64,000 bases of DNA from a virus (taxonomy: Duplodnaviria; Heunggongvirae; Uroviricota; Caudoviricetes): the IMG/VR virus record IMGVR_UViG_3300020046_006452, positions 21,296-85,295 of that record; one strand, given 5' to 3'. How positions within the stretch are numbered: the stretch's first letter is position 1; every line of letters begins with the position of its first letter. Below are positions 20,593 through 46,863 of this stretch, piece after piece. The position numbers and the translations under genes are program-made. The notes beneath the pieces were generated by a model that worked only from the letters and a program-made list of their open reading frames with translations, searched no databases and was not told the origin of the DNA.

Positions 20593-20710
20593 TGCTAAAG
20601 GCGGATGTTTTTAGCGGTGAAATCTTGGATTTGCCACGTTTTTTTGGCTTCACGGGTAGGAGACACCAGGTTGGAGCGATCGTCGCTTAAAACCAGGATT
20701 TTGGATCTAT

Positions 20711-20757
20711 AACCTGTTGATTCTCAGGGAGTTACCGTAATCACCTGAGAATCAAGG
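20711..20757 (-). terminator. 11-bp inverted repeat TTGATTCTCAG / CTGAGAATCAA with 16-nt loop at the 3' end of the metallopeptidase gene
   Basis: perfect stem seen directly; no U-tract. Confidence 0.3.
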
Positions 20758-21262
20758 AGTTAGTGCCGTGCAGTGCATGGAACACTTTAACATCCAAGTC
20801 TACTTGCTGAGGGGTAGCTCCAATCCAATCTAACACGTATGGTTTGATCCTCTCGGTCTTCAGATTGTAGAACAGCCTATTCTGAATGATGTGCATCCAA
20901 ACATAGCGCTTGGCATCCTCCTGATAGGCTAGGTCGACTATACCGTGGAATTTTTCAGCTCGTTTAATTGCCCACTGCTCAGCCACATACTCATCTAGAT
21001 AAGAGAACACTCGCTCTCCCATACTAATGTGTCCTATCTCATGCAAGCACACCATGAAGCTCCAAGTGTCAACTGGTATAGGGAGAAGTACCTGGCGAGT
21101 GTCTCGAAAGGCCTCATAACGACAGCTATCAGGATCCCATGGCATCCACTTACGCACTCGAACCCCTACTAGGTTGAGGTGCTCTCGGACATAGCCTACG
21201 TAGGGTTGTGTTGCTTCTGCTTGTTTTAGGAGTGCCTTAGTGCTCTTCATTGAAACAAACAT
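20741..21262 (-). CDS. putative zinc metallopeptidase (HExxH)
   Basis: 173 aa; MVCLHEIGHISMGE contains an HExxH motif. Confidence 0.45.
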   Translation of the reverse strand: MFVSMKSTKALLKQAEATQPYVGYVREHLNLVGVRVRKWMPWDPDSCRYEAFRDTRQVLLPIPVDTWSFMVCLHEIGHISMGERVFSYLDEYVAEQWAIKRAEKFHGIVDLAYQEDAKRYVWMHIIQNRLFYNLKTERIKPYVLDWIGATPQQVDLDVKVFHALHGTNSLILR

Positions 21263-27239: not shown

Positions 27240-29546
27240 CTATGCCTGGTGGGAAGACATCAGCATGGCATTCAAGGTAGTGGCAATCTGAGTTACGTTC
27301 TTAGTATCAATTGCCTTGGCACCACTACCATACATCTGAGTGAATGCACTTGAGCACTTCAGTGGTTCATTGTTGTAGGACTCCCTGATGAAGTAGCTAA
27401 GGGTCTTAATACCCAGGGCACCAATCCGCTCTACTTGCTTGCGGGTGTGATGCACTGCTACATTACCATAGTAGTTCATTGGGCCTGCAGGTTCACCATC
27501 AGAGAGGTTGATGAAGTAGCTGTCCAGTGTAGGTGACCCCGGGGTCAAGTGCTTGCCAGTAATCAGAGCATCGAAGCACAATCCCTCTGGTGTGCCTCCA
27601 TCTGGGCTAATGCACCCCAGGGTGGACACCAGGTGGTGGAACTTGTTGCGGCGGCTATCGTAGATGATCATGGTCCTTACTTGCTCGTTGAGGTTCTTGC
27701 GGACATCTACCGACACTGAGATCTTCTGAGCCTTGGAAGCTGCCTTGGCAATTGCAATGGTCATCTTGATGGTCTCGATCCAACGTGATCCACTCATTGA
27801 CCCCGATGCATCCAGTGAGAGGTGAATGTGTGAAGGCTTGCACTGTACGATGTTAGTCTGTGAGAAGATACTCTCAATCCCATACCCTACGTGTGGGATC
27901 CTACGAGGATCAACCTTACCGCTCCTCAGCCTGTTGGTAACTGTTACCCGCTGTTCGGCATGTTGCACCAGCTTACGGCTCAGCAGACCACCCAGCTCAA
28001 TCCCCTGAGTGATTGCTGCAGTGTAGCGACTAAGCCCTACTGCATAGAAGTCTTCACGATTGACACCAAAGTTGTTGGCCTCAGCCAGCTGCTTGTCAAT
28101 CTCGTGCCGCTGATCAGTGGTAGCGTTGACCTTAGCTTGAGCGAGTTTGATGTAGTTCAGTACGTTGGCACTGGTGTAGTCTTGCACAACAGCAACTACC
28201 CCATTGAACTGAGTGGTCTGTAGTTCGAGGTCCTGGGTGGAAAGGCTCTCCAGCTGCTTCTGCATATTCTTCTTAGCCTCCTTCTTCATCCCCTTTCCGT
28301 TGAGGAAGTTGCGCTGTGCATCAAGAGCCCTACGCGCCGCATCCGCTGCCGCAGAAGAGGTGTCCGCAGGTGTGGGTTGATCTTGTGCTGTATCTTGCTC
28401 TTGCTGCTCCTCGGTGTCTTGCTCTTCCAGCTCCTCCTCTTGCTGCTGGCCGAACAAGCTGTTGATCTCCATCTGCTTGCGCATGTTGTCCAACTGCTGC
28501 TCAGTGGGTTGTGGCAGCTCTGGTTGCTCCTCCTCAGGCTCATCCCGATCTTCTTCCTCCTCTTGATCGGCCTCCGGTGGTACACTGGTACCAATGGTAG
28601 GCAGTGGATCTTCACCCCCCAAGAACGAAGGTGGGGGTGGAATGATTGGGTCTTCTACATCCTTCAGCGCTGGTGGTATAGCAGCAGCATTAGCCAGGAT
28701 CACCTCCATCACTTGCAAGGTAGTCTCGATGGTATCCTCAACACTAGTCCAGCGCTGGGGGTTGTTGAGGTCAATTGCTGCGTACACCTCCTTCAGCCCC
28801 TTGAGAGCATTGAGGTCAATAGCTGGGCTGAGGAAGTTGTAGATGTGGAACTCCCAGCTGTACAGGTTACTAGAGTCGCGGTAACGGCTACTACGGATCC
28901 CTCGGATCACATCCTTGGTGTTCCAATAGTGATCGTACAGCTTGTGGTAGTAAGCCTTGTATCCTGGGGAGGTGGAGAACACAAAGTGGTCAATCCTCCG
29001 GTCTTCAATCCAGTTGTGGATATCGTGGATGAAGTGTGTAGCCGACCACACACTAGTAGCAAAGTGCTTGTCAATCTTGATGGCCATCTCCTTGACCTTG
29101 TCGGCCAGGGGAGTCATTGCAAAGGGCTTAGGCTTGAATGTACTGTTGAGTACCTCAAAGTCAGTCAGCAATACGTGTGAAGCTTCGTGCAAGGCCAAGC
29201 CCACCACCACATCGAAGTTCTTGGCACTGATGTCGGAGCTCAAGCAAATGGCCTTACCGTTGGTGAAAGACTGATCACCATACCACACTACCGGTATGTC
29301 CTTCTTGGAGATGATCTTGACAAAGTTGACCACTGCCTTACGGTAGGCATTCAGTTTGATCAGCTCAACTAGGCTGGCACCCTTCTTACCGTACGATCGT
29401 TCAGGCAATGAGGTACCCCAATCATCCTTGTCCATCCAGAACGAAGAGAAGCTTCGATCATCCTTCAGCCCCCTCACAGCCTTGCTACGGGTCCTGGACT
29501 CGATCAGCTTGCGGAGGTCTGCGGTATTTGAGTTTGTGGTCGTCAT
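27240..29546 (-). CDS. CobT-like von Willebrand factor A (vWA) domain protein with acidic linker; N-terminal region carries an HExxH motif
   Basis: MIDAS motif LSLDASGSMSG; ~90-aa D/E-rich linker; VVGLALHEASHVL; ATG at 29546 preferred over the TTG start (29582) in the ORF track. Confidence 0.6.
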   Translation of the reverse strand: MTTTNSNTADLRKLIESRTRSKAVRGLKDDRSFSSFWMDKDDWGTSLPERSYGKKGASLVELIKLNAYRKAVVNFVKIISKKDIPVVWYGDQSFTNGKAICLSSDISAKNFDVVVGLALHEASHVLLTDFEVLNSTFKPKPFAMTPLADKVKEMAIKIDKHFATSVWSATHFIHDIHNWIEDRRIDHFVFSTSPGYKAYYHKLYDHYWNTKDVIRGIRSSRYRDSSNLYSWEFHIYNFLSPAIDLNALKGLKEVYAAIDLNNPQRWTSVEDTIETTLQVMEVILANAAAIPPALKDVEDPIIPPPPSFLGGEDPLPTIGTSVPPEADQEEEEDRDEPEEEQPELPQPTEQQLDNMRKQMEINSLFGQQQEEELEEQDTEEQQEQDTAQDQPTPADTSSAAADAARRALDAQRNFLNGKGMKKEAKKNMQKQLESLSTQDLELQTTQFNGVVAVVQDYTSANVLNYIKLAQAKVNATTDQRHEIDKQLAEANNFGVNREDFYAVGLSRYTAAITQGIELGGLLSRKLVQHAEQRVTVTNRLRSGKVDPRRIPHVGYGIESIFSQTNIVQCKPSHIHLSLDASGSMSGSRWIETIKMTIAIAKAASKAQKISVSVDVRKNLNEQVRTMIIYDSRRNKFHHLVSTLGCISPDGGTPEGLCFDALITGKHLTPGSPTLDSYFINLSDGEPAGPMNYYGNVAVHHTRKQVERIGALGIKTLSYFIRESYNNEPLKCSSAFTQMYGSGAKAIDTKNVTQIATTLNAMLMSSHQA

Positions 29547-29574
29547 GCTTGGTATAGAGCTCGTGCTTTTTGTG

Positions 29575-29690
29575 TAGGGCAAAGGTCCCCCTTCTTGGAG
29601 GCTTGGGCAACAGTAAGTTATGAACCGATAGCTAACTCCCTGAGGCTCAGGGGGAATAAAGTTAATCCGCTGAGCCTCAGTAAGTTAGTC
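29575..29690 (-). promoter_or_regulatory. early promoter/operator cassette upstream of the vWA gene: GGTTCATAAC element, -33 TGTTG, -7 TAnnTTTG-like box, two CTGAG-N-CTCAG palindromes
   Basis: minus-strand read: CCCTGAGCCTCAG ... CCCTGAGGCTCAGGG ... GGTTCATAACTTACTGTTGCC-N19-GGACCTTTGCCC ... ATG. Confidence 0.5.
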
Positions 29691-29778
29691 AAAATCCCGG
29701 TTCTAAGGCACGATCGTCCTCTGGCTGCACCCTGATGCCACCCACAAGGAGATCGTGCCGCAGATCCAAGATTTCACG
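29691..29778 (-). terminator. conserved about 88-nt stem-loop element, copy 1 (3' of the 106-aa gene)
   Basis: AAATCCCGGTTCTAAG-GCACGATCGTCCTC...GGAGATCGTGCC-GCAGATCCAAGATTT; 13-bp stem with one bulge. Confidence 0.45.
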
Positions 29779-29779
29779 C

Positions 29780-30100
29780 CTAATCATCCCCTCCACGCTC
29801 CTTTGCAATACTGCGGAAGATCTTCTCGTCACAGAACGCAGCATTGGACTTTCGGATCATGTTGGAGAACCACGCACAGTACTTTGCTTGCTCCCAAGCC
29901 TCTCGTACTGAGCGGGCTGGAGGTATTAGGAGATCAGGGTCCACAATAGGCTGGCCTTTGCCATCGATCAATGCATACCACATCTGATCTCCTACTTGCC
30001 TTGCTTGCACGTGCGCACCTGGGGCTCGCTTGTCAACGTACTTCTTCAGCTTAGCGAATTCCTTCTGCTGGGGGGTCATTGTTGCTTGCTTCGTCATCAT
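29780..30100 (-). CDS. hypothetical protein between the vWA and AAA+ genes
   Basis: 106 aa. Confidence 0.4.
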   Translation of the reverse strand: MMTKQATMTPQQKEFAKLKKYVDKRAPGAHVQARQVGDQMWYALIDGKGQPIVDPDLLIPPARSVREAWEQAKYCAWFSNMIRKSNAAFCDEKIFRSIAKERGGDD

Positions 30101-30108
30101 GGTGTCGT

Positions 30109-31341
30109 TCAGAATTCAAAGTCTTCAGTAACCGCAGGAGTGCCCATCAGGTTGTCCGCCGTACCATCATTGATGTACTTTTGGATCAACTGCTTGATGA
30201 AGGTACGCTCACTCTGCATCCCACCCTCCTGGGAGTACAGAGGATAGATCAGCACTTCGGCACACTCACTCAAAGTGAAGCCATCGGTGATCAATCCAGC
30301 CATCTCCAGCACACTGCGGGTGGACACTGGAGTAGTGATCCGAGCACTATCACCCATCACCTCAGCCCTGGTGGCCGTAGCGATCTCGGCAAGGTTCTGT
30401 GCTTGCTCCTGCTCGATTGCTGGGAACAGCTGACGCACAAGACCACTCTCCTGGGCAGTGTTGAGGAAGGGGATCTCAATGATCGAGAAGCGATCGATCA
30501 GAGCTCGGTCCAGTACACGTGTTGCAGTGTACTCCGATCCGATGTTGGCAGTGGCAATGAATGACACTGTAGGGTCCACTTTGATCGTTGGAGTCCCCAC
30601 TTGCTCGTCCATGCGCAGGTACCGTTGGTTAGGGTCCAATACGGTCATCAGGATGTTGGCAGCCTCAGGGTGCGCCCTCGAGATCTCGTCCAGCACCACA
30701 CAGGTGTTGGGAGTTTGGATCGCAGTGACGAACGCACTTTGATTGAAGAACGTACCAGCGTCCTTGGCAAAGTGGGTGTTGCCGATCAGTGCTCCCCGTG
30801 GGTCCTGCGTAGCACCTAGGTTGATATAGAACACCTCCTTGCCCATCGCCTTGGCCGCAGCAAAGGCAGTTTGGGACTTACCTGTCCCCGTAGGGCCAGT
30901 CAGCATGATGTTACGCCCCCGGATCACACTGCGGCATATCATCTTCCAGGTCAAGTCAGCGCAGATCAAGCTCTCTGGCCGCTGCTGGGGTGAGGAGTGG
31001 ATCAGCTTCAAGATCGGATCGTTCTCAGCCTTGGCTGCAGCCTTCTTGGCATCCAGCTCCCCCTGTATTGGGGATGCACTTTGGGCCTTGCCAGTGGGGG
31101 TGGAGATCGTGCCTACCTCGGCAAGAGTAGTGCCGGAAGGTACTCGCATCCAGCGGTCGACCTCGGAGACCTTCAACAGCCACTCCTTGCTCTTGAACGC
31201 CCCCTGTATGGTGACGTATACGATCTCCCGGGTGATGTCGCCCCCAGTGCGGACATCGTAGGCTCGGACGGTCAGCTTGCCACCCTTACCAGGTGCTTGC
31301 TTGATCTCGGCCAGAAGGGGGTACTGTTGTACTGTACTCAT
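30109..31341 (-). CDS. CobS-like MoxR-family AAA+ ATPase
   Basis: Walker A GPTGTGKS, Walker B VVLDEISRA, sensor ATAN; ATG at 31341 preferred (the ORF-track GTG start lies inside the promoter motif). Confidence 0.65.
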   Translation of the reverse strand: MSTVQQYPLLAEIKQAPGKGGKLTVRAYDVRTGGDITREIVYVTIQGAFKSKEWLLKVSEVDRWMRVPSGTTLAEVGTISTPTGKAQSASPIQGELDAKKAAAKAENDPILKLIHSSPQQRPESLICADLTWKMICRSVIRGRNIMLTGPTGTGKSQTAFAAAKAMGKEVFYINLGATQDPRGALIGNTHFAKDAGTFFNQSAFVTAIQTPNTCVVLDEISRAHPEAANILMTVLDPNQRYLRMDEQVGTPTIKVDPTVSFIATANIGSEYTATRVLDRALIDRFSIIEIPFLNTAQESGLVRQLFPAIEQEQAQNLAEIATATRAEVMGDSARITTPVSTRSVLEMAGLITDGFTLSECAEVLIYPLYSQEGGMQSERTFIKQLIQKYINDGTADNLMGTPAVTEDFEF

Positions 31342-31417
31342 ATGTGCTTGTGTGTTCGTTTGGACTAGGGCAAAGATCACCCTATTTTGGTTTGGTGCAA
31401 CTGAAAGTTATGAACAA

Positions 31418-31585
31418 GTTATGAACCGCTCCGCTTGTTGCGTTTGCGGAAGTTGACTCGGTCCCTCCACTCCTGGAAGTAGATTGCCGGAATGGCGATG
31501 GCTAGTATTATGACGTACATGGTGCCGAACGCGAGGATGACTGATATGATTGCAGTGAGTGCCTTGATCAGGATAGTTTCCCACA
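31418..31585 (-). CDS. small membrane protein (55 aa; below the ORF-track cutoff)
   Basis: MWETILIKALTAIISVILAFGTMYVIILAIAIPAIYFQEWRDRVNFRKRNKRSGS; ATG 6 nt after upstream stop. Confidence 0.35.
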
Positions 31586-31588
31586 TGC

Positions 31589-32044
31589 TTAGCAGCTTTT
31601 AGCACATTCAGGACCAAGGCGGCTATCGATCGAGGAAGGCACTGTCAGCACCTTACCACATCGAGCGCAGGTAGTTGCCCACATCACCTCGAACCCCTTG
31701 GCAGTGATCGCATCGTGCTGATCACGCAGCAGATTGAGTAGTGCCCACTCCGCAGCGCGGAACTCCACGCTAGTTGTGGCGAACTTACTCTTGGCAGTTG
31801 CCCGCAGGGGCTGGGCTGTACTACCCAGCATCCCGAGGTAGGTGTAGTGACGGGTGTTATCAGGACCGGTCAACACCCCCACTGCATACTGCGCAGCAGG
31901 CGGGGTTTGAAAGGGTCCACCATAACGCCCGGGCATTACGTGGGGCTTGAGCTTGGCCACCTGGAAGGACCACCTGCGACCCTTTGCACCATCGACCAAT
32001 GTGAACCGTGCCTTTCCGGCCTTGAGGATCTCGCTGTGTTTCAT
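31589..32044 (-). CDS. hypothetical early protein with C-terminal zinc ribbon
   Basis: 151 aa; CARCGK..GPEC; own promoter cassette. Confidence 0.45.
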   Translation of the reverse strand: MKHSEILKAGKARFTLVDGAKGRRWSFQVAKLKPHVMPGRYGGPFQTPPAAQYAVGVLTGPDNTRHYTYLGMLGSTAQPLRATAKSKFATTSVEFRAAEWALLNLLRDQHDAITAKGFEVMWATTCARCGKVLTVPSSIDSRLGPECAKSC

Positions 32045-32190
32045 GAAGGCAAAGATCCCCCAACTACAACTAAAGTCAACACCAATTTTCCTCTACTCTT
32101 GGAAGCCTACGGATAAACACCTGAGCCCCAGGAGGATATGTAACCCCCTGAGGCTCAGTCACTTAGTTAACTCGCTGAGGCTCAGCTAGA
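32045..32190 (-). promoter_or_regulatory. early promoter/operator cassette (leaderless; -7 box abuts ATG) with two CTGAGGCTCAG palindromes
   Basis: minus strand: ...TGTTG-N19-GATCTTTGCCTTC-ATG; palindromes at about 32147-32165 and 32173-32190. Confidence 0.5.
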
Positions 32191-32646
32191 TCAGGCCTCC
32201 TGCGCAGGACTCTCCACTTCACTGGTGGCCACTTCGGCTTCCACTTCAGGGGTAGCTTTCGCCTTCTTTGGCGCCTTTGGGGTCTTCACCTTGGCAGCCA
32301 CTGGGGTCTTGGGGACCTTCACCTTGGCGACCTTGACAGGCACCACCTTGGCAGGCTTCTCCGGCAGCTTACCGGTCTCCGCCAGTGCCTTCAAGATCTC
32401 GGCAGTCTCCGCCTTGGAGATCCGCTGCCACTTGGACTCCAGGGTCTCCTTGATCAGGTTGAAGCCGGCCACGTACGCATTGCGCAAGGTCGGGTAGACG
32501 ATCATCTTGCTCAGGTCCTCGACCTCACCCTCGGGGGCTTGGGCATTGAGGGCACGGATTACAGGGTCCTTGCGCTTGGCGCCCATCGCTTGGCAGATGT
32601 TGACGATGCAAGGGTAGGTCAGGGAGGTGTTGTTCTTGGTACTCAT
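32191..32646 (-). CDS. histone H1-like / AKP-repeat basic DNA-binding protein
   Basis: C-terminus KPAKVVPVKVAKVKVPKTPVAAKVKTPKAPKKAKATPE; own promoter with 80-nt leader. Confidence 0.45.
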   Translation of the reverse strand: MSTKNNTSLTYPCIVNICQAMGAKRKDPVIRALNAQAPEGEVEDLSKMIVYPTLRNAYVAGFNLIKETLESKWQRISKAETAEILKALAETGKLPEKPAKVVPVKVAKVKVPKTPVAAKVKTPKAPKKAKATPEVEAEVATSEVESPAQEA

Positions 32647-32763
32647 GGTCTTGTCTTGTTGTTTGTTGTTTTGCTAGCTCCTTAAAGGCTGAGCAGCGTT
32701 TGCCTATGGTTTGTTTGTGTTGAATCAAATATACGCCAACTTTCTCAAGCAGGCAACAGTAAG

Positions 32764-33072
32764 TTATGAACCGATCCGGGTGATCACGATATCGATGTTG
32801 GTAGTGTGGTAGAACCCCGAGGTGTAGACTTTCCACTTCAGTTGATAGCCAGCCACACGCAAGCCCTGGGCGATTCGGTCTTCGAGGTTGAACAGTACGG
32901 AGGCCTTCACCCCCCGGTAGACCCCCCAGAACTTCAGCCTGCGGCCATTAGCGCGGGGTTCGGAGAACGTGCGGTATTCCCCCAGTGATCCATTGCTACG
33001 AAGCTCGATCGCGATGTTGCGCATGATCTTGATCTCCTGCTTATACAGGGGGCAGTCCTTGTTGTGTTTCAT
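32764..33072 (-). CDS. hypothetical early protein
   Basis: 102 aa with own promoter cassette. Confidence 0.4.
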   Translation of the reverse strand: MKHNKDCPLYKQEIKIMRNIAIELRSNGSLGEYRTFSEPRANGRRLKFWGVYRGVKASVLFNLEDRIAQGLRVAGYQLKWKVYTSGFYHTTNIDIVITRIGS

Positions 33073-33165
33073 GAAGGCAAAGATACGGTGTTTTGGCGTT
33101 GAGGCAACAGTTCCAAGGTGAAAAAGTTATGAACCGGTGCTAACTCCCTCAGGCCCAGTGGGTTG
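33073..33165 (-). promoter_or_regulatory. early promoter cassette: GGTTCATAAC, TGTTG-N19-TATCTTTGCCTTC directly abutting ATG, plus degenerate palindrome
   Basis: GCACCGGTTCATAACTTTTTCACCTTGGAACTGTTGCCTCAACGCCAAAACACCGTATCTTTGCCTTCATG. Confidence 0.55.
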
Positions 33166-33399
33166 CATGTAATACGTTGAGTTCCAGTGAGTTCGGGTGT
33201 AGTGCAGGAACTTGGGCACTTTGGCGTTGTCATAGAACGGATCTACCCCCTGGCGCCTCATCTCGCGCGCCAATTGTGGGTGCTCCACCACAAGGGTGTT
33301 CCAAAGGTGCTGTCCCCAGCGGATTCCCTGGCGTTCATAGTGGTCCTTCCAGGTGCAATACGCGGAGGTGAGCCATTGATGTCGTGTTATAGTAGGCAT
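33127..33399 (-). CDS. hypothetical early protein
   Basis: 90 aa. Confidence 0.4.
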   Translation of the reverse strand: MPTITRHQWLTSAYCTWKDHYERQGIRWGQHLWNTLVVEHPQLAREMRRQGVDPFYDNAKVPKFLHYTRTHWNSTYYMQPTGPEGVSTGS

Positions 33400-33404
33400 G
33401 TTGT

Positions 33405-33644
33405 TCAGCAGGTTTCAGGGTGGGGGAACGAACAGAAGTCGCCGTTGGTGCGGGTTACCTGGGCAAGGTACCACTCTCCCCCCTCTTCTTGCTCAACTTT
33501 GGGGACCATAGCCTCGCCTATGTTGCGCAGGCTACGCAGGTCACCATCTTCACACCGCAGCACTCGGGTACGGCCATCGTAGACATTGCGGTACTTGAGG
33601 GTGGAGGGGTACATCGGTTCGGTTTGCAGTTGTGGGCTTATCAT
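33405..33644 (-). CDS. hypothetical protein
   Basis: 79 aa. Confidence 0.35.
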   Translation of the reverse strand: MISPQLQTEPMYPSTLKYRNVYDGRTRVLRCEDGDLRSLRNIGEAMVPKVEQEEGGEWYLAQVTRTNGDFCSFPHPETC

Positions 33645-33647
33645 GTG

Positions 33648-33884
33648 TTACTGGGGGAGTTTGTGTCCTTGATTTGCAGCCGCTTCAAAGGCTGAGTGTA
33701 TGTGCAGGTTGTCAAACAGGTCAGGCTTCTTGCACTGATCGAGGGTCTTAAGCAGGCGTTGGATCAGCTGGGCGTCCTTCTCACGCTCCGTTTCATACAG
33801 GTCGCGCAGTTCGGAAAGGCTCCAAGCGTAGCCCTGCATTTCGGCAAGCCGATCATCGCTGCAAAGGAGGTTAAGGGTGGCCAT
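33648..33884 (-). CDS. hypothetical early protein
   Basis: 78 aa; promoter box 25 nt upstream. Confidence 0.4.
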   Translation of the reverse strand: MATLNLLCSDDRLAEMQGYAWSLSELRDLYETEREKDAQLIQRLLKTLDQCKKPDLFDNLHIHSAFEAAANQGHKLPQ

Positions 33885-34084
33885 GGGATCTCGTTGTGTT
33901 TGTATAAGGCAAAGATACGGTGCTATAGACTAAAGTCAACACCCAAAGTTCGGCATTCGTGGAATCCTAGCTGTAACTTGCTGAGACTGAGGGGGAAAGT
34001 TTTTTCTCTCTGATTGCCAGGCAGTTACGTAGTTGCCCTGAGGATCAGGGGTTTAGCTGTAACTCCCTGAGGCTCAGCACTTAA
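33885..34084 (-). promoter_or_regulatory. early promoter cassette with three CTGAG-N-CTCAG-type palindromes
   Basis: TATCTTTGCC box at about 33897-33915; palindromes about 34002-34012, 34035-34050, 34060-34078. Confidence 0.45.
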
Positions 34085-34175
34085 GGCAAAAAACGGGCTA
34101 TAAACGACGATCGCCCCTTCCCTGGTCTCTGACACCAGGTGGGAGGCGATCGTGCCTTACAATCGAGATTTGAGC
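34085..34175 (-). terminator. conserved stem-loop element, copy 2 (nested hairpin CCTGGT/ACCAGG inside a CGACGATCGCCCC/GGGAGGCGATCGTG stem)
   Basis: same flanks as copies 1 and 3: ...ACGACGATCG...GGCGATCGTGCC...AGATTT. Confidence 0.45.
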
Positions 34176-34181
34176 GGTAGT

Positions 34182-34652
34182 CTACGCTTTTCGCAGCTCC
34201 TTAATAGCATCAGCACATGCCACGATCTCCTTCTCATGGATCCAGCCCATCTTGGCCCCATACAAGTCCAGTACCTTGACCCCAGTCTTGTGCACCCTCA
34301 ACGTACGTACACAGCGGCCGCTGAGCACGGCATCACTATCGATATCGATGTACTTGGGTGCACCCACATAAGCACTCAGCCATTGCAGGGCTTGTTGGAC
34401 CGTTAGTGTAACCCCCGGGGGGGTGGTGGAGATAGAGTCATCCATCTTCTCACCATCCCACACCATGCTGTATATAGGGAATGTGTTGATGTACGTAGGG
34501 AATTGGAAGTGAGGTACCTTACACGCCTCGATCACTGCCTTCAGCATGTCGAAGGTGTCTCGATCATTGGTACTGAGCTTGACGTGCCACTTAGTGGTCT
34601 GATTGGGGATGCTTGTGTTGTTCATCGTGTTGTTTGTGTTTGTTGCGTTCAT
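34182..34652 (-). CDS. hypothetical early protein
   Basis: 156 aa; promoter box abuts ATG. Confidence 0.45.
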   Translation of the reverse strand: MNATNTNNTMNNTSIPNQTTKWHVKLSTNDRDTFDMLKAVIEACKVPHFQFPTYINTFPIYSMVWDGEKMDDSISTTPPGVTLTVQQALQWLSAYVGAPKYIDIDSDAVLSGRCVRTLRVHKTGVKVLDLYGAKMGWIHEKEIVACADAIKELRKA

Positions 34653-34754
34653 GAAGGCAAAGATACGCTAACTGAGTTCAAAGTCAACGACAACTTTCCC
34701 CTACTCTTGGAATCCCAGGTGTAACTTGCTGGGGGTCAGGGGGTTAACTGCCCT

Positions 34755-34788
34755 AAAAAAGGTTACCCCCGCCGTTGACGGGGGGGGG
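34755..34788 (-). terminator. rho-independent terminator (minus strand): GC hairpin CCCCCCCCGTCAACGGCGGGGG followed by T6
   Basis: hairpin 34765-34788, A6 at 34755-34760 on plus strand; downstream of the SPFH gene, upstream of the next promoter. Confidence 0.5.
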
Positions 34789-35088
34789 TTAGCCGGTTCA
34801 TAACTTTATTTTGGTTTGAGTGTGTGATTTCTATAGCTTTTTGTGATCGGGTGTATATGTATGGGATCCGGTTCCTCCCCCCTCCCTCCACTTATCGAGT
34901 GTCTTGTTTTTACCAAGGTGTCTACTATAGAGCTACCTCGTAACAGCGACTAATTTACCTACCTGGGTGTCTTACCTTACGCCGAGTGCAGTTAAGTATA
35001 CCCCCACGACTCAAAGCACTAAAAAAAGGAGGGAGGTCATCTTGTGACCCCCCCCCCTTTGTTATTGTACCTATGCTAACACAAGAGA

Positions 35089-36339
35089 CTACTTACCCCT
35101 CATGTTGAGATCTAGTCCTAGCTGCTTAGCATTGTTGATTGTCATCATGTCAATCAAGTTGTTTACTCCGTTGGGTGAAGCGCTCCCCCCACCACTAAGG
35201 TAAGTCGGGACTACATTAGCTCCATTCTTTGCCCACGCATCTGCCCACGCTTGTTGTACTTTGATGAAGGCATCTAGTTTAGGATTCAAGGCACCGTCGG
35301 CTGCCATCAACAGCTTCTTCTTTTCAGCTTCACCTTCACCTTCTAAGATCAATTGCTTCTTAGTGAACTCAGCTGCCTTCATGTCTTGCTCTGCTACTTC
35401 CTTTCTTTGGATAGCGGCGATCACAGCTTGTTCTTTCTCTGCGTTCATCTTACTCTGTACTTCTGCGATCTTAGTCTTACCTTGAGATGCTGCAGTCTTT
35501 TCATCTTGTTGTGCTACGAGGGCTCTTGCTCTTGAGGTTTGGATCTCCATTGCCATCTTTTGTTGTTGCAGCAATTGGTCTCGCACCACTGGACTGAACA
35601 CTACACTGATAGCTGGTGTCCCGATGCTGATATTGTACTTGGAGAGCTCGCTTGGAGATTGGCGTTTGAATCCTCCTGGAGAGTCTGGATCTGCAATACG
35701 CTCTGCGAACCTCACTACTACACTATCACCAGTAATTGCATCCACTTCGTAAGTCTCTTGGGTACGTGTTAGATACAGTCCGTTCTTGACCATGTCTTCG
35801 GTATATCCAATCAGGTCACTACGCTTCTCTGCACTAGCCTCTTGACTAGTCATGAATGCACCAACTTGCATTACAGCACTCTTCAATTGCTTCTGTACAA
35901 TCTGAGAGTTGAGGCTTTCCCATCCTCCGTGCTTTTCTTGAATGAACCTAATGCTTTGTTCATCAGTGGGCATTTCTACTGGGATGGTGACAAAGAGGAA
36001 GGCCTCACCTCGATCGTAGAATTGCACCTTGACTCCGAACCGTGCTACATTGTTGTCAGTCCAGGCATTGTCATAGCTCAGACTCTCCTTTTGGTCTTCT
36101 GGGATGTCGAAACTGGAGAGATCGAACTTTGGGTAGTCACCTACAAGATCCCCTAGTTGTTGGTTCTGCCAGCCTGGAGTACTGTAGACGTGCATCTTGC
36201 CGCCTGGGGTTTGTACAACATAGATCCGATTGGCTGGTACGTTAATCAGCAGCTTGTTGCCAAGGTAGAATGCTCCGATCAGCAGGAATGCGATGCCGAT
36301 CATCGTAGCGATGCGGCGGAAGGAAAGGGTTTGGTTCAT
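35089..36339 (-). CDS. SPFH/band-7 (flotillin-like) membrane protein
   Basis: 416 aa; N-terminal TM, SPFH-like core, long E/K/A-rich coiled coil. Confidence 0.5.
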   Translation of the reverse strand: MNQTLSFRRIATMIGIAFLLIGAFYLGNKLLINVPANRIYVVQTPGGKMHVYSTPGWQNQQLGDLVGDYPKFDLSSFDIPEDQKESLSYDNAWTDNNVARFGVKVQFYDRGEAFLFVTIPVEMPTDEQSIRFIQEKHGGWESLNSQIVQKQLKSAVMQVGAFMTSQEASAEKRSDLIGYTEDMVKNGLYLTRTQETYEVDAITGDSVVVRFAERIADPDSPGGFKRQSPSELSKYNISIGTPAISVVFSPVVRDQLLQQQKMAMEIQTSRARALVAQQDEKTAASQGKTKIAEVQSKMNAEKEQAVIAAIQRKEVAEQDMKAAEFTKKQLILEGEGEAEKKKLLMAADGALNPKLDAFIKVQQAWADAWAKNGANVVPTYLSGGGSASPNGVNNLIDMMTINNAKQLGLDLNMRGK

Positions 36340-38566: not shown

Positions 38567-38645
38567 GTTTTGCTATTGAGTCAAAGATAAGGCATCCATT
38601 GTGTACCCAGTAACACTAAGTTATGAACAACGGTGGTGGGTGCTG

Positions 38646-38960
38646 TTAGGATGCTTCGATTGTTACCTTGGTGGCAGGCACGATACGAAGTGTTGGTAGC
38701 TCTCCTGTGTCGAGATTCTCGGATAAGAACTCGGATAAGGCTTCGAGACTTTTATATGGACCCGCCCACCAATGGCCATCAGCTGCACTCACTAACGTAT
38801 ACTGATCTACCCCTGTACGTACACACAAGTACAGATCAAGTTGGTTCCTTCCCAACCAGTACCAGTGTCCTTGTTCGAGTTGAATAGGGGCTTTTGTTGG
38901 TTCCTTTCTATTGATTGTTGCTTTCATGCTTGTTGTTATTGCTTGTTCCGTATCAGCCAC
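38646..38960 (-). CDS. hypothetical protein
   Basis: 104 aa. Confidence 0.35.
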   Translation of the reverse strand: MADTEQAITTSMKATINRKEPTKAPIQLEQGHWYWLGRNQLDLYLCVRTGVDQYTLVSAADGHWWAGPYKSLEALSEFLSENLDTGELPTLRIVPATKVTIEAS

Positions 38961-39099
38961 GCGCTAATCGACGCACCAAAGACCCATGATAGCATCAAAG
39001 CAAGCCACTGAACCCAGCGCACGTCTGTGAGTAGCATCAACCAAACAGCATTGAACCCTATTAGGGTCATGGCCCAGTATAGTACGTGATTTCTCATAC

Positions 39100-39402
39100 T
39101 CATGCTTGTTGAAGGTTAAGTTTACGGGCCTTCTTGATTGCTGCTTTGAGACTCCCAGCCCACACCATTACACCATTGATCTCATAGGGTTGTTGACCTT
39201 TCTGCTGGTCTTGAATTGGAGTCTTGTGTACCCTGTACTCTCCTTTGTGTAGTCCCAGCTTGCTGTGAGGCCTCATCGACCTCAGTACTTGCTCTTTGAG
39301 TTGCTCCAAGTCCTTGTAGTGGTCTTGGATGGTTTGCTCGAATAGAGGCCCTACGACCTCTGTGATGTCTTTGCTGGTGGGTGTCTCTTCTGTCTTTGTC
39401 AT
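39100..39402 (-). CDS. hypothetical protein
   Basis: 100 aa; promoter box abuts ATG. Confidence 0.4.
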   Translation of the reverse strand: MTKTEETPTSKDITEVVGPLFEQTIQDHYKDLEQLKEQVLRSMRPHSKLGLHKGEYRVHKTPIQDQQKGQQPYEINGVMVWAGSLKAAIKKARKLNLQQA

Positions 39403-39467
39403 GAAGGCAAAGATAAGCCATCCCTTGTGTACTCAGCAACACTAAGTTATGAATAGCGTTTAGGAGG

Positions 39468-41669: not shown

Positions 41670-41947
41670 GAGGCCTTTGTGTTGGTGGTACGCCAGGCCA
41701 TAACAGCAGCAGCATACTGCTCGATGCTATCTGAACTCCAGTTAGGGGGGTACACAGTGGTCACTTTGATTGGAGGCTTACCAACCAACTTGCAAAATGG
41801 TTTCAGTCGGTACAGTACGTTGGTCAAGTCTTTCATGTTGCTTGTTTTGAAGCTAGTCAAATATAAGCTGAGTATTGTGCGCTGAGCAACAGGCTGTTCA
41901 AAACTTCTCGATGCTTGGCACTGCACCACCGTTGTCATACTGGACAC
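41666..41947 (-). CDS. hypothetical protein
   Basis: 93 aa. Confidence 0.35.
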   Translation of the reverse strand: MSSMTTVVQCQASRSFEQPVAQRTILSLYLTSFKTSNMKDLTNVLYRLKPFCKLVGKPPIKVTTVYPPNWSSDSIEQYAAAVMAWRTTNTKAS

Positions 41948-42305
41948 ACTCCTTACCCTTGGAGGTCAGGAACACCATCTCCTTACCTTGCTCATTCTCG
42001 ATAGTGTTAACTAACCCTTTGTCAATCAGACTCTGCAGTGCAGACTCCATTACACATCGTCGTATAGCATCCTCAGCCTCTTCTTGGTTTACGTTTAACT
42101 CTCCAGTAGAGCACCACTTGTCAAATAAGATCTTGCCAAACACCTTTCGGACTGTGGGGCTATCGGTATCGGGGATGTCTACATAGAAGTTGGTATCTTG
42201 AAGTTCTTGCTCCAACTCATCCAATGCTTGTTCTACTTCTTGTGGGTACATGGTGGTGCTATTTGATTTGGTTTTGTTGAGTGAAATGGTCGGGGGTCGG
42301 GTCAC
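41898..42305 (-). CDS. hypothetical protein
   Basis: 135 aa. Confidence 0.4.
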   Translation of the reverse strand: MTRPPTISLNKTKSNSTTMYPQEVEQALDELEQELQDTNFYVDIPDTDSPTVRKVFGKILFDKWCSTGELNVNQEEAEDAIRRCVMESALQSLIDKGLVNTIENEQGKEMVFLTSKGKECVQYDNGGAVPSIEKF

Positions 42306-42381: not shown

Positions 42382-42993
42382 TCATGGCCTGGGTGTGAGT
42401 TGTTCGATGAGCTTCAGTGCTGCGCCGTAGCGGGCCACCTCTTCCCGTGTGTAGCCTTCCATGCGCCCGACCGCTTCGTATTTGTCCAGCCATCCGGCAA
42501 GCGTGTTGACGTGGCAACCGATGGAGATCACATCGTTGTCGGCCTTGGTGATCGTGTGCTTGCCAAGGCATATCGTCCAAGGGGTGCGTTCAACCCGCGC
42601 ATCCCCGGACACCCGCGCATTCCCGGACACCAGCGCATTCCCGGACACCTGCGCATCCCCGTACACCTGCGCATTCCCGTACACCCGCGCATTCCCGGAC
42701 ACCCGCGCATCCCCGTACACCTGCGCATCCCCGTACACCCGCGCATTCCCGGACACCAGCGCATTCCCGGACACCAGCGCATTCCCGGACACCCGCGCAT
42801 CCCCGTACACCTGCGCATTCCCGTACACCTGCGCATTCCCGTACACCCGCGCATTCCCGGACACTAGTCCTTCGATGCGGGCTGTTTTGTCTACCCTGTC
42901 TGGGTGTTGGACCCATCCGCCACCGTTGGCGTGTTGGAAAAGCTCCGTGTCCTTCATCCACGGGTATTTGGCATTGAGTTCTTCGCGTGTCAT
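42382..42993 (-). CDS. hexapeptide-repeat (left-handed beta-helix-like) protein, about 15 x [G-N/D-A-R/Q/L-V-Y/S]
   Basis: repeat block encoded by near-perfect 18-bp tandem DNA repeats at 42590-42860; unique N- and C-terminal segments; ATG at 42993 (MTREEL) gives ATGA overlap with upstream stop. Confidence 0.55.
42590..42860. repeat. about 15 tandem copies of an 18-bp repeat GCGCAT(T/C)CCCG(G/T)ACACC(C/A/T) (plus-strand reading)
   Basis: near-perfect periodicity of 18 bp; encodes the hexapeptide repeats on the minus strand; explains the open frames on both strands. Confidence 0.7.
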
Positions 42994-43298
42994 GTTGTTG
43001 GTGTGATATTGTGCTTGGTGGCTGCGAGGGAGAGGGCGGCATCGCCATCTATGTATGGGCATTCGTCATAAGTCCTTGCGTATGCACAGGCGCCATCCAG
43101 CGCATCCACCAGCGCCTGAACCGTCGCCCGCAGGCTCTCCAGTTCGGCGTGTGTGGTCTTGCGGTCGGCTTCGTACAGGTCGCGAACCATCACTGCCCCC
43201 GCCACATATCCATGTCCTTTGTCACGGATCAATGGACCGTAAAGGAATGCCTCGCCTATTGCGTCATCGCTCACCAGTAGCTCAAGTGTTGCGCTCAT
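42990..43298 (-). CDS. hypothetical protein
   Basis: 102 aa. Confidence 0.4.
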
Positions 43299-43617: not shown

Positions 43618-43698
43618 TGTGTTGTTATGCTTTTGCTATTGAGTCAAAGATAAGGCATCGGTTGTGTACTTAGCAACACTAAGTTATGAACACTAATG

Positions 43699-44270: not shown

Positions 44271-44271
44271 G

Positions 44272-44367
44272 TGAACAAGGTAGGACTCGAACCTACACGC
44301 ACCCTGTGCTTCGCTACCCGAGCTTGCTTCCCTCGGACGATGTGGCTCCCAGTTACACCACTTGCTC
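44272..44367 (-). tRNA. tRNA-like element (about 96 nt) with canonical T-arm GTAGGTTCGAGTCCTAC and GAGCAAG/CTTGTTC acceptor; anticodon region does not fold canonically (9-nt loop)
   Basis: manual fold; acceptor and T-arm clear, D-arm GTGT/ACAT; possibly a type-II or degenerate tRNA. Confidence 0.3.
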
Positions 44368-44416
44368 ATAACGTTATTGACAAATATACAACTTTAACTG
44401 ACTACCTTGCAACCAC

Positions 44417-46117: not shown

Positions 46118-46129
46118 CGCTGTTCGGGG

Positions 46130-46860: not shown

Positions 46861-46863
46861 CTC

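Follow-up and report, generated by a model that had tools for sequence, protein, structure and literature searches.

The minus-strand genes at positions 29575–34800 of this phage DNA are preceded by repeated sequence elements, and the locus raises the question of whether these form one kind of regulatory unit and what such a unit would do. The phage is large, uncultured and known from metagenomes alone; the window (the whole 64,000-nt stretch analysed here) includes a baseplate-wedge homologue and 19 tRNA genes. A first-pass annotation had proposed that each gene follows the same ordered set of stem-loop, palindromic operators, Bacteroidota-type promoter and leaderless ATG. Repeated plug-in regulatory cassettes do precede most of the small accessory genes, and in this region seven predicted minus-strand promoters serve 11 genes. 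That interpretation was partly supported: the sigma-A match, the over-representation of leaderless starts and the reading of the palindromes as protein sites stood, but the uniform order of elements was overstated, since at least two types of upstream block and several mini-operons were found. Five of the nine small genes have a cassette of their own, while the other four lie downstream in mini-operons of two or three genes.

Cassette map

Features are given in the direction of transcription. Type-B promoters follow the element GGTTCATAAC, and type-A promoters a different block, GGnTTCCAAnAATAG..TTGG.

34795–34804 (+): inverted copy of GGTTCATAAC, just upstream of the following hairpin
34766–34784 (−): GC-rich hairpin then T-run, a canonical intrinsic terminator heading the cassette of the 156-aa gene
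34722–34746 (−): palindrome unit TAACCCCCTGACCCCCAGCAAGTTA, 6 nt before the type-A block
34701–34715 (−): type-A block GGATTCCAAGAGTAG
34658–34687 (−): promoter, TTG 34685–34687, 19 nt, TATCTTTG 34658–34665; ATG 34652, 5 nt past the box, predicted leaderless
34182–34652 (−): 156-aa gene behind this promoter, a window-specific ORFan
34092–34174 (−): hairpin of about 85 nt downstream of the 156-aa gene, inner stem GCACGATCG/CGATCGTC, then TTTTTT; terminator-like
33974–34084 (−): array of about four palindrome units in both orientations
33910–33939 (−): type-A promoter, TTG 33937–33939, 19 nt, TATCTTTG 33910–33917; 25-nt leader
33648–33884, 33405–33644, 33127–33399 (−): genes of this promoter (78, 79 and 90 aa)
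33141–33165 (−): palindrome unit within the 3' end of the 90-aa ORF
33126–33135 (−): GGTTCATAAC; the 90-aa ORF terminates at its TAA
33078–33107 (−): type-B promoter, TTG 33105–33107, 19 nt, TATCTTTG 33078–33085; ATG 33072, 5 nt past the box, predicted leaderless
32764–33072 (−): 102-aa gene; N-terminus MKHNKDCPLYK conserved in orthologues with synonymous changes
32763–32772 (−): GGTTCATAAC, 6 nt before −33; the 102-aa gene terminates at its TAA
32726–32756 (−): type-B promoter, TTG 32754–32756, 20 nt, TATATTTG 32726–32733; 79-nt CA-rich leader without Shine-Dalgarno sequence
32191–32646 (−): 151-aa gene behind this promoter
32114–32192 (−): three tandem palindrome units, 27-nt period
32093–32107 (−): type-A block GGCTTCCAAGAGTAG
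32050–32079 (−): type-A promoter, TTG 32077–32079, 19 nt, GATCTTTG 32050–32057; ATG 32044, 5 nt past the box, predicted leaderless
31589–32044, 31419–31586 (−): genes of this promoter, a DUF6011 protein and a 55-aa ORF ending in GGTTCATAA
31407–31427 (−): doubled element GGTTCATAAC-T-TGTTCATAAC, 11-bp period
31371–31400 (−): type-B promoter, TTG 31398–31400, 19 nt, weak −7 box GATCTTTG starting at 31378; flanked by the inverted repeat TAGGG/CCCTA; 29-nt leader
30109–31341, 29780–30100 (−): genes of this promoter, AAA+ (MoxR/CobS-like) and 106 aa
29688–29778 (−): hairpin of about 85 nt, −48 kcal/mol, z = −5.1; orthologous position in the related contigs L004 and L008
29633–29687 (−): two palindrome units, an inverted pair
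29617–29626 (−): GGTTCATAAC, 6 nt before −33
29580–29610 (−): type-B promoter, TTG 29608–29610, 20 nt, GACCTTTG 29580–29587; 33-nt leader
27240–29546 (−): 768-aa gene behind this promoter, previously labelled 'vWA'; no Pfam match

Palindromes and hairpins

A 25-bp palindrome, TAAC-N3-CTG-N5-CAG-N3-GTTA, is arrayed upstream of the promoter blocks. The window holds 12 copies (0.25 expected) and densities are similar in six related contigs, while none was found in the stretches of phage Mel-JY01 and immuto that were examined. Complementarity at its variable positions is no greater than base composition predicts (0.36, 0.29 and 0.28 observed vs 0.46, 0.29 and 0.31 expected), and because compensatory pairing is lacking the unit reads as a probable protein site rather than a hairpin, in line with the palindromic operators first proposed. 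The conserved, terminator-like hairpin of about 85 nt (−37 to −51 kcal/mol, z = −2.8 to −5.2) is maintained in relatives with seven compensatory pairs, and may well be a terminator. It had been assigned to every cassette, but occurs in three: two of the seven in the region and one at 46.9 kb. There is a further, inverted copy at 20.7 kb:

20618–20762: inverted copy of the long hairpin (20618–20705) with adjacent palindrome units (20710–20762), downstream of gene 20741–21250

A possible though unlikely alternative is that neither the palindromes nor the long hairpins are operators, and that both are instead repeats of a selfish or structural kind (REP/MITE-like) or RNA elements (terminators, RNase III or stability hairpins). 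Adjacent palindrome units can fold into long structures (−32.5 kcal/mol, z = −6.6, at 29625–29695; 15-bp pairing at 32121–32158), and the inverted copy and compensatory changes of the long hairpin would suit such elements, as would the terminator function of the stem-loops in PeSL cassettes (see below). A single palindrome unit, however, folds poorly, its loop being too short (1 nt); its four blocks are conserved in phages of 39–55% GC with no complementarity beyond expectation between them, it lies at a constant 6 nt from the type-A block, and units are found at orthologous positions in all relatives.

Promoter-proximal blocks

The element GGTTCATAAC was matched 12 times with at most one mismatch (3.6 expected). 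Nine copies are on the minus strand, in intergenic DNA or at gene ends, and one is inverted (34795–34804, +). It accompanies four of the seven in-region promoters, usually 6 nt before the −33 element, and the other three have the type-A block. Single or doubled at the helical period, this asymmetric element lies 6, 15 or 18 nt before −33. The relatives L006 and L010 share the doubled form (11–12 bp) in front of the AAA+ gene, and the use of its TAA as the stop of the 102-aa gene is conserved in L004 and L006.

Such properties recall the stoperators of Cluster A mycobacteriophages, which are situated in short intergenic gaps, as are many GGTTCATAAC copies here (PMC9283540, PMC6550527). A repressor site of this kind would block elongating polymerase or silence the adjacent promoter, and it would fit the asymmetry of GGTTCATAAC, the orientation of 9 of 10 gene-end or intergenic copies along transcription, and the three window copies that include the preceding gene's stop codon. 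It is nevertheless distinctly improbable here, as the distance to −33 is fixed (6 nt, or one helical turn more at 15–18 nt), the element is doubled (11–12-bp period) specifically at the weakest −7 box, that of the AAA+ gene, which looks like activation, and the window has no repressor or integrase and no sign of a temperate phage.

Promoter core and sigma factor

The promoter core (TTG, spacer, TAnnTTTG-like box) was found 21 times across 21–61 kb, and so, while present in 29575–34800 as described, it is window-wide and not special to that region. The composite GTTG-N18-21-TANNTTTG has 17 matches against 0.54 expected, a number reached in none of 100 shuffles, and 16 of the 17 are on the minus (coding) strand; TCTTTGCC has 10 matches (2.3 expected). 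Enrichment over 45 upstream regions with no prior motif recovered the same motifs within the window, the top k-mers being CTTTGCC, ATCTTTG, TTCATAA, TATCTTT, GTACACA and TGTTGC. At 20 of the 21 sites an ATG opening an ORF of at least 46 aa follows within 4–97 nt. Promoters outside the region have a 21-nt spacer and a TTGCnnnGTACAC signature, and a second full cassette, previously placed at 46535–46957, is indeed present:

46632–46948 (−): second full cassette, outside 29575–34800
46866–46948 (−): its hairpin, followed by palindromes (46804–46855) and a type-A block (46783–46797)
46740–46747 (−): −7 box of its promoter P1, without a following ATG
46678–46699 (−): two copies of GGTTCATAAC between P1 and P2, 12-bp period
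46632–46639 (−): −7 box of its promoter P2; 97-nt leader, ATG 46534
38582–39454 (−): two near-identical type-B/C promoters, (T/A)(G/T)TTCATAAC-TTAGTG-TT(G/A)C
39408–39415 (−): −7 box of a type-B/C promoter, then a predicted leaderless ATG at 39402
38582–38589 (−): −7 box of a type-B/C promoter, then a 15-nt leader
43645–43692: third copy of the type-B/C promoter

The −33/−7 pair, far above chance and co-oriented with the genes, fits the Bacteroidota sigma-A consensus TTTG/TAnnTTTG, refined to TAHHTTTG with G at −5 and 4–5 nt to the start site (PMC6847099, PMC7366714, PMC9723704). Off-consensus −7 boxes occur (GATCTTTG, GACCTTTG; TTTA or TTTC in L009 and L010). The sites could also be read as ordinary sigma-70-type promoters (−35 TTGACn/TTGCnn, 16–18 nt, −10 TAnnnT) of a cyanobacterial or other non-Bacteroidota host, with TTTG incidental: TTG-N19-21 is equivalent to a hexamer spacing of 16–18, three promoters score 9/12 in a sigma-70 scan (core TTGACT-16-TATCTT), some cyanobacteria also do without Shine-Dalgarno sequences, and the closest deposited relative is labelled Microcystis phage Mel-JY01. 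This reading is highly doubtful. The unbiased enrichment ranks ATCTTTG, CTTTGCC and TCTTTGC first, so that TTTG(C/A)C, which falls outside the −10 hexamer, is the most conserved piece; the boxes GATCTT and GACCTT have no T at −12, which a −10 hexamer requires; textbook TTGCATAC..GTATATTTG sites occur in Mel-JY01 itself, at 35% GC; and Shine-Dalgarno-like sequences in the window are below the random level. All 21 boxes have T at their fifth position, where sigma-70 prefers A, a weaker point as the sites were chosen on TTTG.

A member of Bacteroidota is the most likely host. Relatives by protein similarity include a Flavobacterium phage. It counts against this reading that the only relative whose Flavobacterium host is proven shows no intergenic promoters of this type in its first 50 kb.

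Predicted leaderless starts

An ATG lies 4–5 nt past the box at 7 of the 21 promoters (P = 2e-6) and within 7 nt at nine, compared with 3.7–5.5% in Bacteroidota transcriptomes (PMC7366714, PMC9723704); in the region it is exactly 5 nt past the box at 34652, 33072 and 32044, and 25–79 nt past it at the other four. Leaderless mRNAs are therefore predicted, and the suggestion that many transcripts are of this kind gains from their strong over-representation. The N-termini of orthologues are conserved from the box-adjacent ATG onward, and the 25-nt leader at 33910–33939 is homologous to the leaderless version with the ATG lost (CCTTATAC vs CCTTCATG). CA content is raised over the first 30 coding nt (0.72 vs 0.59, P = 0.004), Shine-Dalgarno-like 4-mers upstream of starts are depleted (6/100 vs 14 expected), and A peaks at −3, −6 and −11/−12 upstream of starts, as in F. 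johnsoniae.

It might be argued that the box adjoining the ATG is a start-associated translation or processing signal, with genes carried on long read-through transcripts and no leaderless mRNAs: polycistronic RNA is plausible because every gene lies on the same strand and strong terminators are few, translation could begin at an internal AUG with U/C-rich, G-poor surroundings because Bacteroidota need no Shine-Dalgarno sequence, and leaderless mRNAs are rare in the phylum (about 4–6%). This is very improbable, given that 11 other units have the same box 15–97 nt before the ATG, and that the box has no ORF behind it at 46747, is always paired with a TTG 19–21 nt upstream, has at 33917 a leadered copy that is a mutated version of the leaderless one, and shows an ATG offset of 4–5 nt that exactly equals the published distance from box to start site (PMC6847099).

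Cassettes and genes in related phages

The cassettes are retained in five or more related phages from metagenomes, and eleven type-A cassettes from five phages align ungapped over about 115 nt. Across phages of 39–55% GC the spacers drift, but the palindrome blocks, GTTCATAAC, CTGTTG and the −7 box do not vary. Behind homologous cassettes the genes themselves either show no relationship or are not equally many. Window 34904–34648 is 74% identical to L006 6166–6421, and window 32166–32037 matches L004 7098–7229; in both cases the genes behind are unrelated. Between two orthologous cassettes there is one gene in the window and three in L006, and genes present only in the window (78, 90 and 55 aa) are inserted at cassette borders, two of them ending in the cassette's own TAA. 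There is no sign of recent homogenisation, since orthologous cassettes are about as diverged as coding DNA (67–74%). Breakpoints in three to five contigs suggest that recombination at the cassettes may have caused these exchanges.

Interpretation

The whole is best explained (probability roughly 0.62) by autonomous, host-sigma-A-dependent cassettes in an accessory block of a Bacteroidota phage, which also serve as homology patches for gene swaps. The region would be a hyperplastic accessory-gene block of a large tailed phage, with each gene or mini-operon of two or three genes placed behind its own autonomous cassette. From 5' to 3', this would comprise a terminator (the conserved hairpin, or a short GC hairpin and T-run) insulating it from upstream transcription; one to four copies of the dyad TAAC-N3-CTG(A)-N3-(T)CAG-N3-GTTA, putatively bound by a protein peculiar to this clade of phages; around −40 to −60, either GGTTCATAAC or GGnTTCCAAnAATAG-N-CCAAnTTGG, a candidate activator or alpha-CTD-type contact site; and a Bacteroidota-type host sigma-A promoter (−33 TTG, 19–20 nt, −7 TAnnTTTG), at every copy of which host RNA polymerase would initiate. 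The ATG would then follow exactly 4–5 nt past the box, the predicted +1 being the A of AUG and the mRNA leaderless, or else a CA-rich leader of 15–97 nt without Shine-Dalgarno sequence. The cassettes may be early and may answer to a dedicated regulator, as was first proposed; a search for a regulator or DNA-binding protein identified none. Unrelated ORFan genes would be inserted, lost or replaced via the cassettes, which could act as homology patches because some 60–115 nt, running through the start codon and first codons (MKH..), are repeated within the genome and shared between phages.

The best reading is thus of a functional analogue, in a Bacteroidota phage, of the PeSL promoter-terminator cassettes of T4-type phages, which follow the same logic of cassettes kept and genes swapped. 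The swapping, insertion or loss of genes behind retained cassettes, a PeSL-like property missed by the first-pass annotation, is probably the most interesting aspect of this locus.

Predicted promoter cassettes between nt 29575 and 34800

The 11 minus-strand genes of this region are served by seven predicted promoters with spacers of 19–20 nt, listed here by the start of the -7 box with the transcription unit that follows:

34665 (−), type A promoter, 156-aa gene
33917 (−), type A promoter, 78-, 79- and 90-aa genes
33085 (−), type B promoter, 102-aa gene
32733 (−), type B promoter, 151-aa gene
32057 (−), type A promoter, 151-aa (DUF6011) and 55-aa genes
31378 (−), type B promoter, AAA+ (410 aa) and 106-aa genes
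29587 (−), type B promoter, 768-aa gene labelled 'vWA'

The first-pass annotation had placed one and the same ordered set of elements before each gene. A common promoter core is indeed present throughout, but the cassettes are not uniform and several genes share one. In type B promoters a short asymmetric element, GGTTCATAAC, lies ahead of the -33 TTG, at a distance of 6 nt in three promoters (including the proximal copy of a doublet at 31378), 18 nt at 33085 and, outside the region, 15 nt at 46639. The ORF ahead terminates at the TAA within GGTTCATAAC in three cases. Type A promoters, which include 46747 outside the region, carry GGnTTCCAAnAATAG..TTGG-GTTGAC in place of GGTTCATAAC, and a third flavour (type C), found elsewhere in the window, combines a 21-nt spacer with TTGCnnnGTACAC. 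The promoters of the AAA+ and 768-aa genes share an inverted repeat around the box, TAGGG-N-GAyCTTTG-CCCTA, which may be an operator. Three copies of 99 nt of cassette sequence occur within the window.

Among the proteins of the region a function could be assigned only to the AAA+ protein; seven of the 10 scanned have no Pfam or PHROG match, and 16 of 20 further proteins have no Pfam match. The vWA label previously given to the 768-aa gene (27240–29546, −) was not confirmed, as there is no Pfam match at E ≤ 0.01 and only a weak match to PHROG 1576 (function unknown); it is plausible given the pairing with a MoxR/CobS-like AAA+ gene. The 151-aa protein encoded at 32191–32646 (−) has an N-terminus of about 90 residues that is paralogous to that of the neighbouring AAA+ protein (32–38% identity), followed by a K/A/P/V-rich, histone H1-like tail, and its gene carries a 22-nt frameshifting deletion in a natural variant (contig L003). 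Beyond the region, a non-coding stretch of about 290 nt (34800–35089) that is conserved with the related metagenomic contig L006 has an inverted GGTTCATAAC (34795–34804, +) followed by TTG-N20-TAGCTTTT on the plus strand, which could represent a divergent or antisense promoter, or a small-RNA locus.

Promoter core and likely host

The motifs GGTTCATAAC, TCTTTGCC and TANNTTTG each exceed their expectation in dinucleotide shuffles, and the composite GTTG-N18-21-TANNTTTG matches 17 times (0.54 expected), 16 times on the coding strand. Relaxing the first base of the box gave a set of 21 sites, all between 21 and 61 kb, of which 20 have an ATG 4–97 nt downstream at the head of an ORF of 46 aa or more; only 46747, the upstream partner in a tandem promoter pair, has none. 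As a control for ascertainment bias, the k-mers of 45 upstream regions were ranked against the whole window with no pattern supplied. The highest-ranking 7-mers were CTTTGCC, TCTTTGC, ATCTTTG, TTCATAA and TATCTTT, and next came GTACACA and CATAACT; these are the motifs reported earlier.

Promoters recognised by the primary sigma factor of Bacteroidota (sigma-ABfr / sigma-A) have a -33 TTTG and a -7 TAnnTTTG (PMC6847099, PMC7366714, PMC9723704). For F. johnsoniae the box has been narrowed to TAHHTTTG (T-12, A-11, T-8, T-7, T-6 and G-5), and 4–5 nt separate it from the start site (PMC6847099, PMC7366714, PMC9723704). The phage sites resemble these in the sequence of the box (TAnnTTTG in 18/21, more narrowly TAT(C/A)TTTG in 16/21), in the TTG located 19–21 nt upstream of it at all 21 sites (TTA in one), in the avoidance of G at box positions 3–4 (19/21), and in a purine 4–5 nt past the box, most sites having A at the fifth or sixth position. 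They differ in having (G/T)GTTG(C/A)C rather than TTTG at -33, in boxes that start with G instead of T (GAyCTTTG, 3/21), and in conserved upstream blocks, none of which have been described for Bacteroidota host promoters; in two related contigs (L009 and L010) the last G of the box is often A or C, also unlike the consensus. In the sister population represented by L003, a natural insertion of one A at nt 33095 gives the 33085 promoter a spacer of 20 nt in place of 19. Ahead of the structural genes (0–20 kb) no distinct late-promoter motif was evident.

Translation signals were also surveyed. Ahead of 100 ATG ORFs, Shine-Dalgarno (SD)-like 4-mers are rarer than at random positions (6, compared with 14 ± 3), and A peaks at -3, -6 and -11/-12, where it has been shown to promote initiation in F. 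johnsoniae. That these are ordinary sigma-70 promoters of a phage whose host lies outside the Bacteroidota is retained as a rival explanation, since the same sequences score 9/12 as sigma-70 promoters and SD sequences are also absent in some cyanobacteria. Two features argue against it: the conservation of TTTG(C/A)C, which no -10 hexamer would include, and the boxes that start with G. The host clues are divided: the depletion of SD-like sequences stands with a Flavobacterium phage relative (44% aa identity), while the nearest deposited relative, Mel-JY01 (PP395634.1; 35% GC), the closest in INPHARED, is labelled a Microcystis phage. Mel-JY01 itself argues against the sigma-70 alternative, as 25 kb of its genome (121286–146245) contain at least 10 textbook Bacteroidota promoters of the form TTGCATAC..N..GTATATTTG; its reported cyanobacterial host may be wrong, the real host being, for example, a heterotroph in a non-axenic culture. 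A sigma-54 reading of GG..TTGC was rejected because the GG-to-GC distance is 16 nt and not 10.

Predicted leaderless start codons

An ATG lies no more than 7 nt past the box at nine promoters, and exactly 4 or 5 nt past it at seven (ATGs at 34652, 33072, 32044, 39402, 48654, 25755 and 21250; binomial P = 2e-6). Given the published box-to-start distance of 4–5 nt, the predicted +1 falls on the A of the AUG or on the preceding C. The box-adjacent ATG is the first in-frame ATG, and orthologues in three related contigs (L004, L006 and L008) keep both the box-ATG arrangement and the N-terminal residues (MKHNKDCPLYK, MKHNKNCPLYK, MKHDKNCPLYK) despite synonymous changes. The first 30 coding nt are rich in C and A (0.72 vs 0.59, P = 0.004), and leadered type A copies (33917, and nt 7809 of L006) have the same sequence with a mutated ATG (CCTTATACAAACAC vs CCTTCATGAAACAC). 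Because of this conservation, the CA-rich start and the mutated ATG of the leadered copies, the box-adjacent ATGs are taken to be real start codons. The leaderless transcripts proposed earlier are predicted for 7 of 21 promoters. In Bacteroidota transcriptomes leaderless transcripts make up 3.7–5.5% of mRNAs, or up to about 13% in F. johnsoniae if all leaders of ≤10 nt are counted (PMC6847099, PMC7366714, PMC9723704).

Hairpins and the 25-bp palindrome

Two kinds of stem-loop are associated with the cassettes:

29688–29778, hairpin of about 85 nt
34092–34174, hairpin of about 85 nt
46866–46948, hairpin of about 85 nt
20618–20705, hairpin of about 85 nt, inverted
34766–34784, canonical GC hairpin with T-run

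The long hairpin has an inner stem GCACGATCG/CGATCGTGC and an outer stem AAATC/GATTT, with a predicted free energy of -37 to -51 kcal/mol (z -2.8 to -5.2). It is found at orthologous positions in L004, L006 and L008, with seven compensatory pairs. The A and T runs on either side give it the look of a terminator, perhaps one that works in both directions. At gathering thresholds Rfam returned only tRNAs, which places these hairpins outside any RNA family known there. Three of the seven cassettes of the region, and the one at 46.9 kb, have a long hairpin or a canonical terminator; the remaining cassettes have palindrome units only.

These units contain a dyad of 25 bp, TAAC-N3-CTG-N5-CAG-N3-GTTA. 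It occurs 12 times in the window (≤2 mismatches; 0.25 in shuffles), always inside cassettes (at 20.7, 29.6, 32.1, 33.1, 34.0, 34.7 and 46.8 kb), and in type A cassettes exactly 6 nt separate the proximal copy from the TTCCAA block. Four sequence blocks are conserved in a set of 72 copies drawn from six phages. Pairing of positions 5–7 with 19–21 is no more frequent than composition predicts (observed/expected 0.36/0.46, 0.29/0.29 and 0.28/0.31). Conservation of sequence without conservation of pairing is what a protein site would show and a hairpin would not, and the dyad reads as a predicted protein site.

There is some likeness to integron cassettes, in that imperfect palindromes with GTTA.. 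and ..TAAC ends border exchangeable ORFan cassettes that adjoin a promoter. An attC site, however, is recognised as a folded hairpin whose structure is kept over its sequence, the opposite of what is seen here, and the attC-like reading failed the pairing test. No integrase was found in the window and, unlike integron cassettes, every phage cassette has its own promoter.

Conservation and gene exchange among related phages

Relatives were retrieved with the AAA+ protein (L006, 77% aa identity; L008, 73%; L004, 71%; L009, 69%; L010, 64%) and range from 39 to 53% GC; two more contigs (L013 and L016) were added by pattern scan. All of these contigs have the same kinds of elements. Where the sequence ahead of the AAA+ and 768-aa genes was aligned, the palindrome blocks, GTTCATAAC, CTGTTG and the -7 box stand out as invariant islands amid drifting sequence, and the doubled GGTTCATAAC ahead of the AAA+ gene (period 11–12 bp) is kept in the window, L006 and L010.

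Eleven type A cassettes from five phages, found by a short pattern and alignment (an over-specified longer pattern matched nothing), give a gap-free alignment of about 115 nt that begins at the palindrome and runs some 10 nt beyond the ATG. The genes behind them can differ entirely, a comparison that rests on 3–5 contigs. Window nt 34904–34648 are 74% identical to nt 6166–6421 of L006, yet the genes that follow (156 aa vs 138 aa) are unrelated, and before the next orthologous cassette is reached there is one gene in the window and three in L006. Likewise, 32166–32037 matches L004 (7098–7229), with the DUF6011 gene behind one and an unrelated 181-aa gene behind the other. The 78-, 90- and 55-aa genes occur in the window only and are located at cassette borders; the 90- and 55-aa ORFs extend into the cassette and end at its TAA.

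An ORF of 416 aa (phrog_11908, no Pfam match, 62–69% aa identity) occupies three different genome positions in three related phages (window 35089–36339, −; L006, 2255–3511; L004, 15655–16908), and may be a mobile gene.

Genome setting

Nearly every ORF of the window is on the minus strand. Tail and baseplate genes, including a baseplate-wedge homologue, lie at 0–20 kb, and are followed between about 20 and 64 kb by some 80 ORFans, most of them small, and by 19 tRNA genes (44271–63879, −), all on the coding strand. Several type C promoters lie directly 3' of tRNA ends (e.g. 61425, 55239). The 97-nt tRNA-Pro called by ARAGORN at 44271–44367 overlaps an ORF, is absent from the Rfam matches and is probably spurious. 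From 28 to 34 kb the G+C content is 52–56%, against 45–49% in the rest of the window. This island (~28000–34000) coincides with the type A and type B cassettes and their 19–20-nt spacers, the 21-nt spacers lying outside it, and it may have been acquired from a higher-GC relative such as L004 or L006. Another local GC peak contains a 226-aa protein (42382–43062, −) with YdcK beta-solenoid and bactofilin-like repeats (Pfam E = 1e-24).

Proteins of the window were matched exactly on the JGI metagenome contigs 3300020036 and 3300020037; these two, which carry the AAA+ protein, represent one phage, an apparent difference of 501 nt being an N run only. A nucleotide near-identity search with 27–47 kb against 50,697 deposited phage records gave no match, nor did scans of IMG/VR with the AAA+ protein and two cassette patterns, or of GTDB bacterial genomes with the AAA+ protein. 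By protein similarity the nearest deposited relatives are Mel-JY01 (44–50% aa identity), Flavobacterium phage vB_FspM_immuto (44%) and an uncultured 484-kb phage. The first 50 kb of immuto have no intergenic promoters of the cassette type, no palindromes and no GGTTCATAAC, so this phage is unusable as a cultured anchor.

Pfam and PHROG scans of 30 window proteins revealed no regulator, apart from sub-threshold winged-helix hints (41898–42305, 48759–49130), and no repressor or integrase was found in the 64 kb. The 106-aa protein (29780–30100, −) is the best-conserved small protein of the clade (57–84% identity) and is present in every palindrome-bearing contig, with only 14 homologue clusters among 5.8 billion proteins. 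Its AF2 model (pLDDT 83) has no significant fold match in the PDB (best E = 0.2), and so provides no evidence for DNA binding.

Comparison with known cassette systems

The closest known parallel is the promoter-early stem-loop (PeSL) cassette of T4-type phages (Arbiol et al. 2010, PMC2839356; Comeau et al. 2014, PMC4122927). In the two systems alike, a composite motif recurs between genes, is conserved over about 100 bp, pairs a strong promoter for a host sigma factor with a terminator or attenuator stem-loop (predicted in the present case) and is concentrated in ORFan-rich hyperplastic regions. In both, indels and replacements between related phages end at cassettes (here in 3–5 contigs), and a gene is made transcriptionally autonomous by its own cassette, which for this phage is predicted from sequence. 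The differences are that the phage cassettes show no sequence homology to PeSLs, that their predicted promoter is of the Bacteroidota -33/-7 type and not sigma-70, and that their 3' end has no SD sequence. These three points make them an analogue of PeSLs rather than a member of that family. Also unlike PeSLs, about one third of the cassettes end in a start codon (predicted leaderless) and even supply the first codons, and they have extra conserved parts, namely the 25-bp palindrome arrays and a promoter-proximal block of either of two kinds. Their stem-loop precedes the promoter and is not part of it, with the exception of the short TAGGG/CCCTA repeat around two -7 boxes. Mini-circle formation is a feature of PeSLs.

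A second comparison is with the stoperators of Cluster A mycobacteriophages (PMC9283540, PMC6550527), which are likewise short asymmetric sites, present in many copies of one orientation within small gaps between genes and frequently overlapping a stop codon. GGTTCATAAC has nine minus-strand copies, at gene ends or in intergenic DNA, and one inverted copy; three copies overlap stop codons. It differs from stoperators (PMC9283540, PMC6550527) in its fixed helical phasing to the -33 element and its tandem doublets. Stoperators are sites at which an immunity repressor blocks elongation, but no immunity repressor is known for this phage, which appears to be lytic.

Proposed mechanism and significance

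The observation made in the first-pass annotation is confirmed and its interpretation is supported in part. The system is best described as a PeSL-like arrangement of promoter, terminator and operator cassettes, apparently adapted to Bacteroidota transcription and to SD-less, often leaderless translation. Each cassette would be a start point for host RNA polymerase with sigma-A, and the units would be insulated by the terminators. GGTTCATAAC is asymmetric, keeps a constant helical phase and appears as a doublet where the -7 boxes are weakest (GATCTTTG), and at other promoters the TTCCAA block takes its place in the -40 to -60 zone; this suggests two classes of activator or alpha-CTD contact, which could define two sub-classes, regulatory or temporal. 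The arrays of palindromes, found at about -70 to -150, are suggestive of a clade-specific dimeric DNA-binding protein, and the repeated modules of 60–115 nt could provide the homology for gene exchange.

A bolder reading, to which we give roughly one chance in five, is that of a plug-and-play system within a clade of Bacteroidota phages. A module of about 115 nt would give interchangeable leaderless ORFans an operator array, a promoter, a start site, a start codon and the first codons (MKH..), and a clade-specific reader of the 25-bp dyad (TAAC..CTG..CAG..GTTA) would both regulate the units and target recombination. If true, this would amount to integron-like exchange within phage genomes, via homology or site recognition.

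The cassettes would extend the PeSL idea, that of regulatory cassettes doubling as recombination linkers, beyond T4-type coliphages, into an unrelated lineage and the unusual machinery of transcription and translation in Bacteroidota. They predict that at least one third of the transcription units of this phage are leaderless, compared with about 4–6% of mRNAs in the phylum, and would form a compact natural test set for start-codon selection by ribosomes that do not use SD sequences. The short, strong and portable promoter parts and the new 25-bp operator that are predicted here may find use in Bacteroidota genetics. The promoter type may also serve as a practical predictor of host phylum for uncultured phages, and it casts doubt on the reported host of Mel-JY01.
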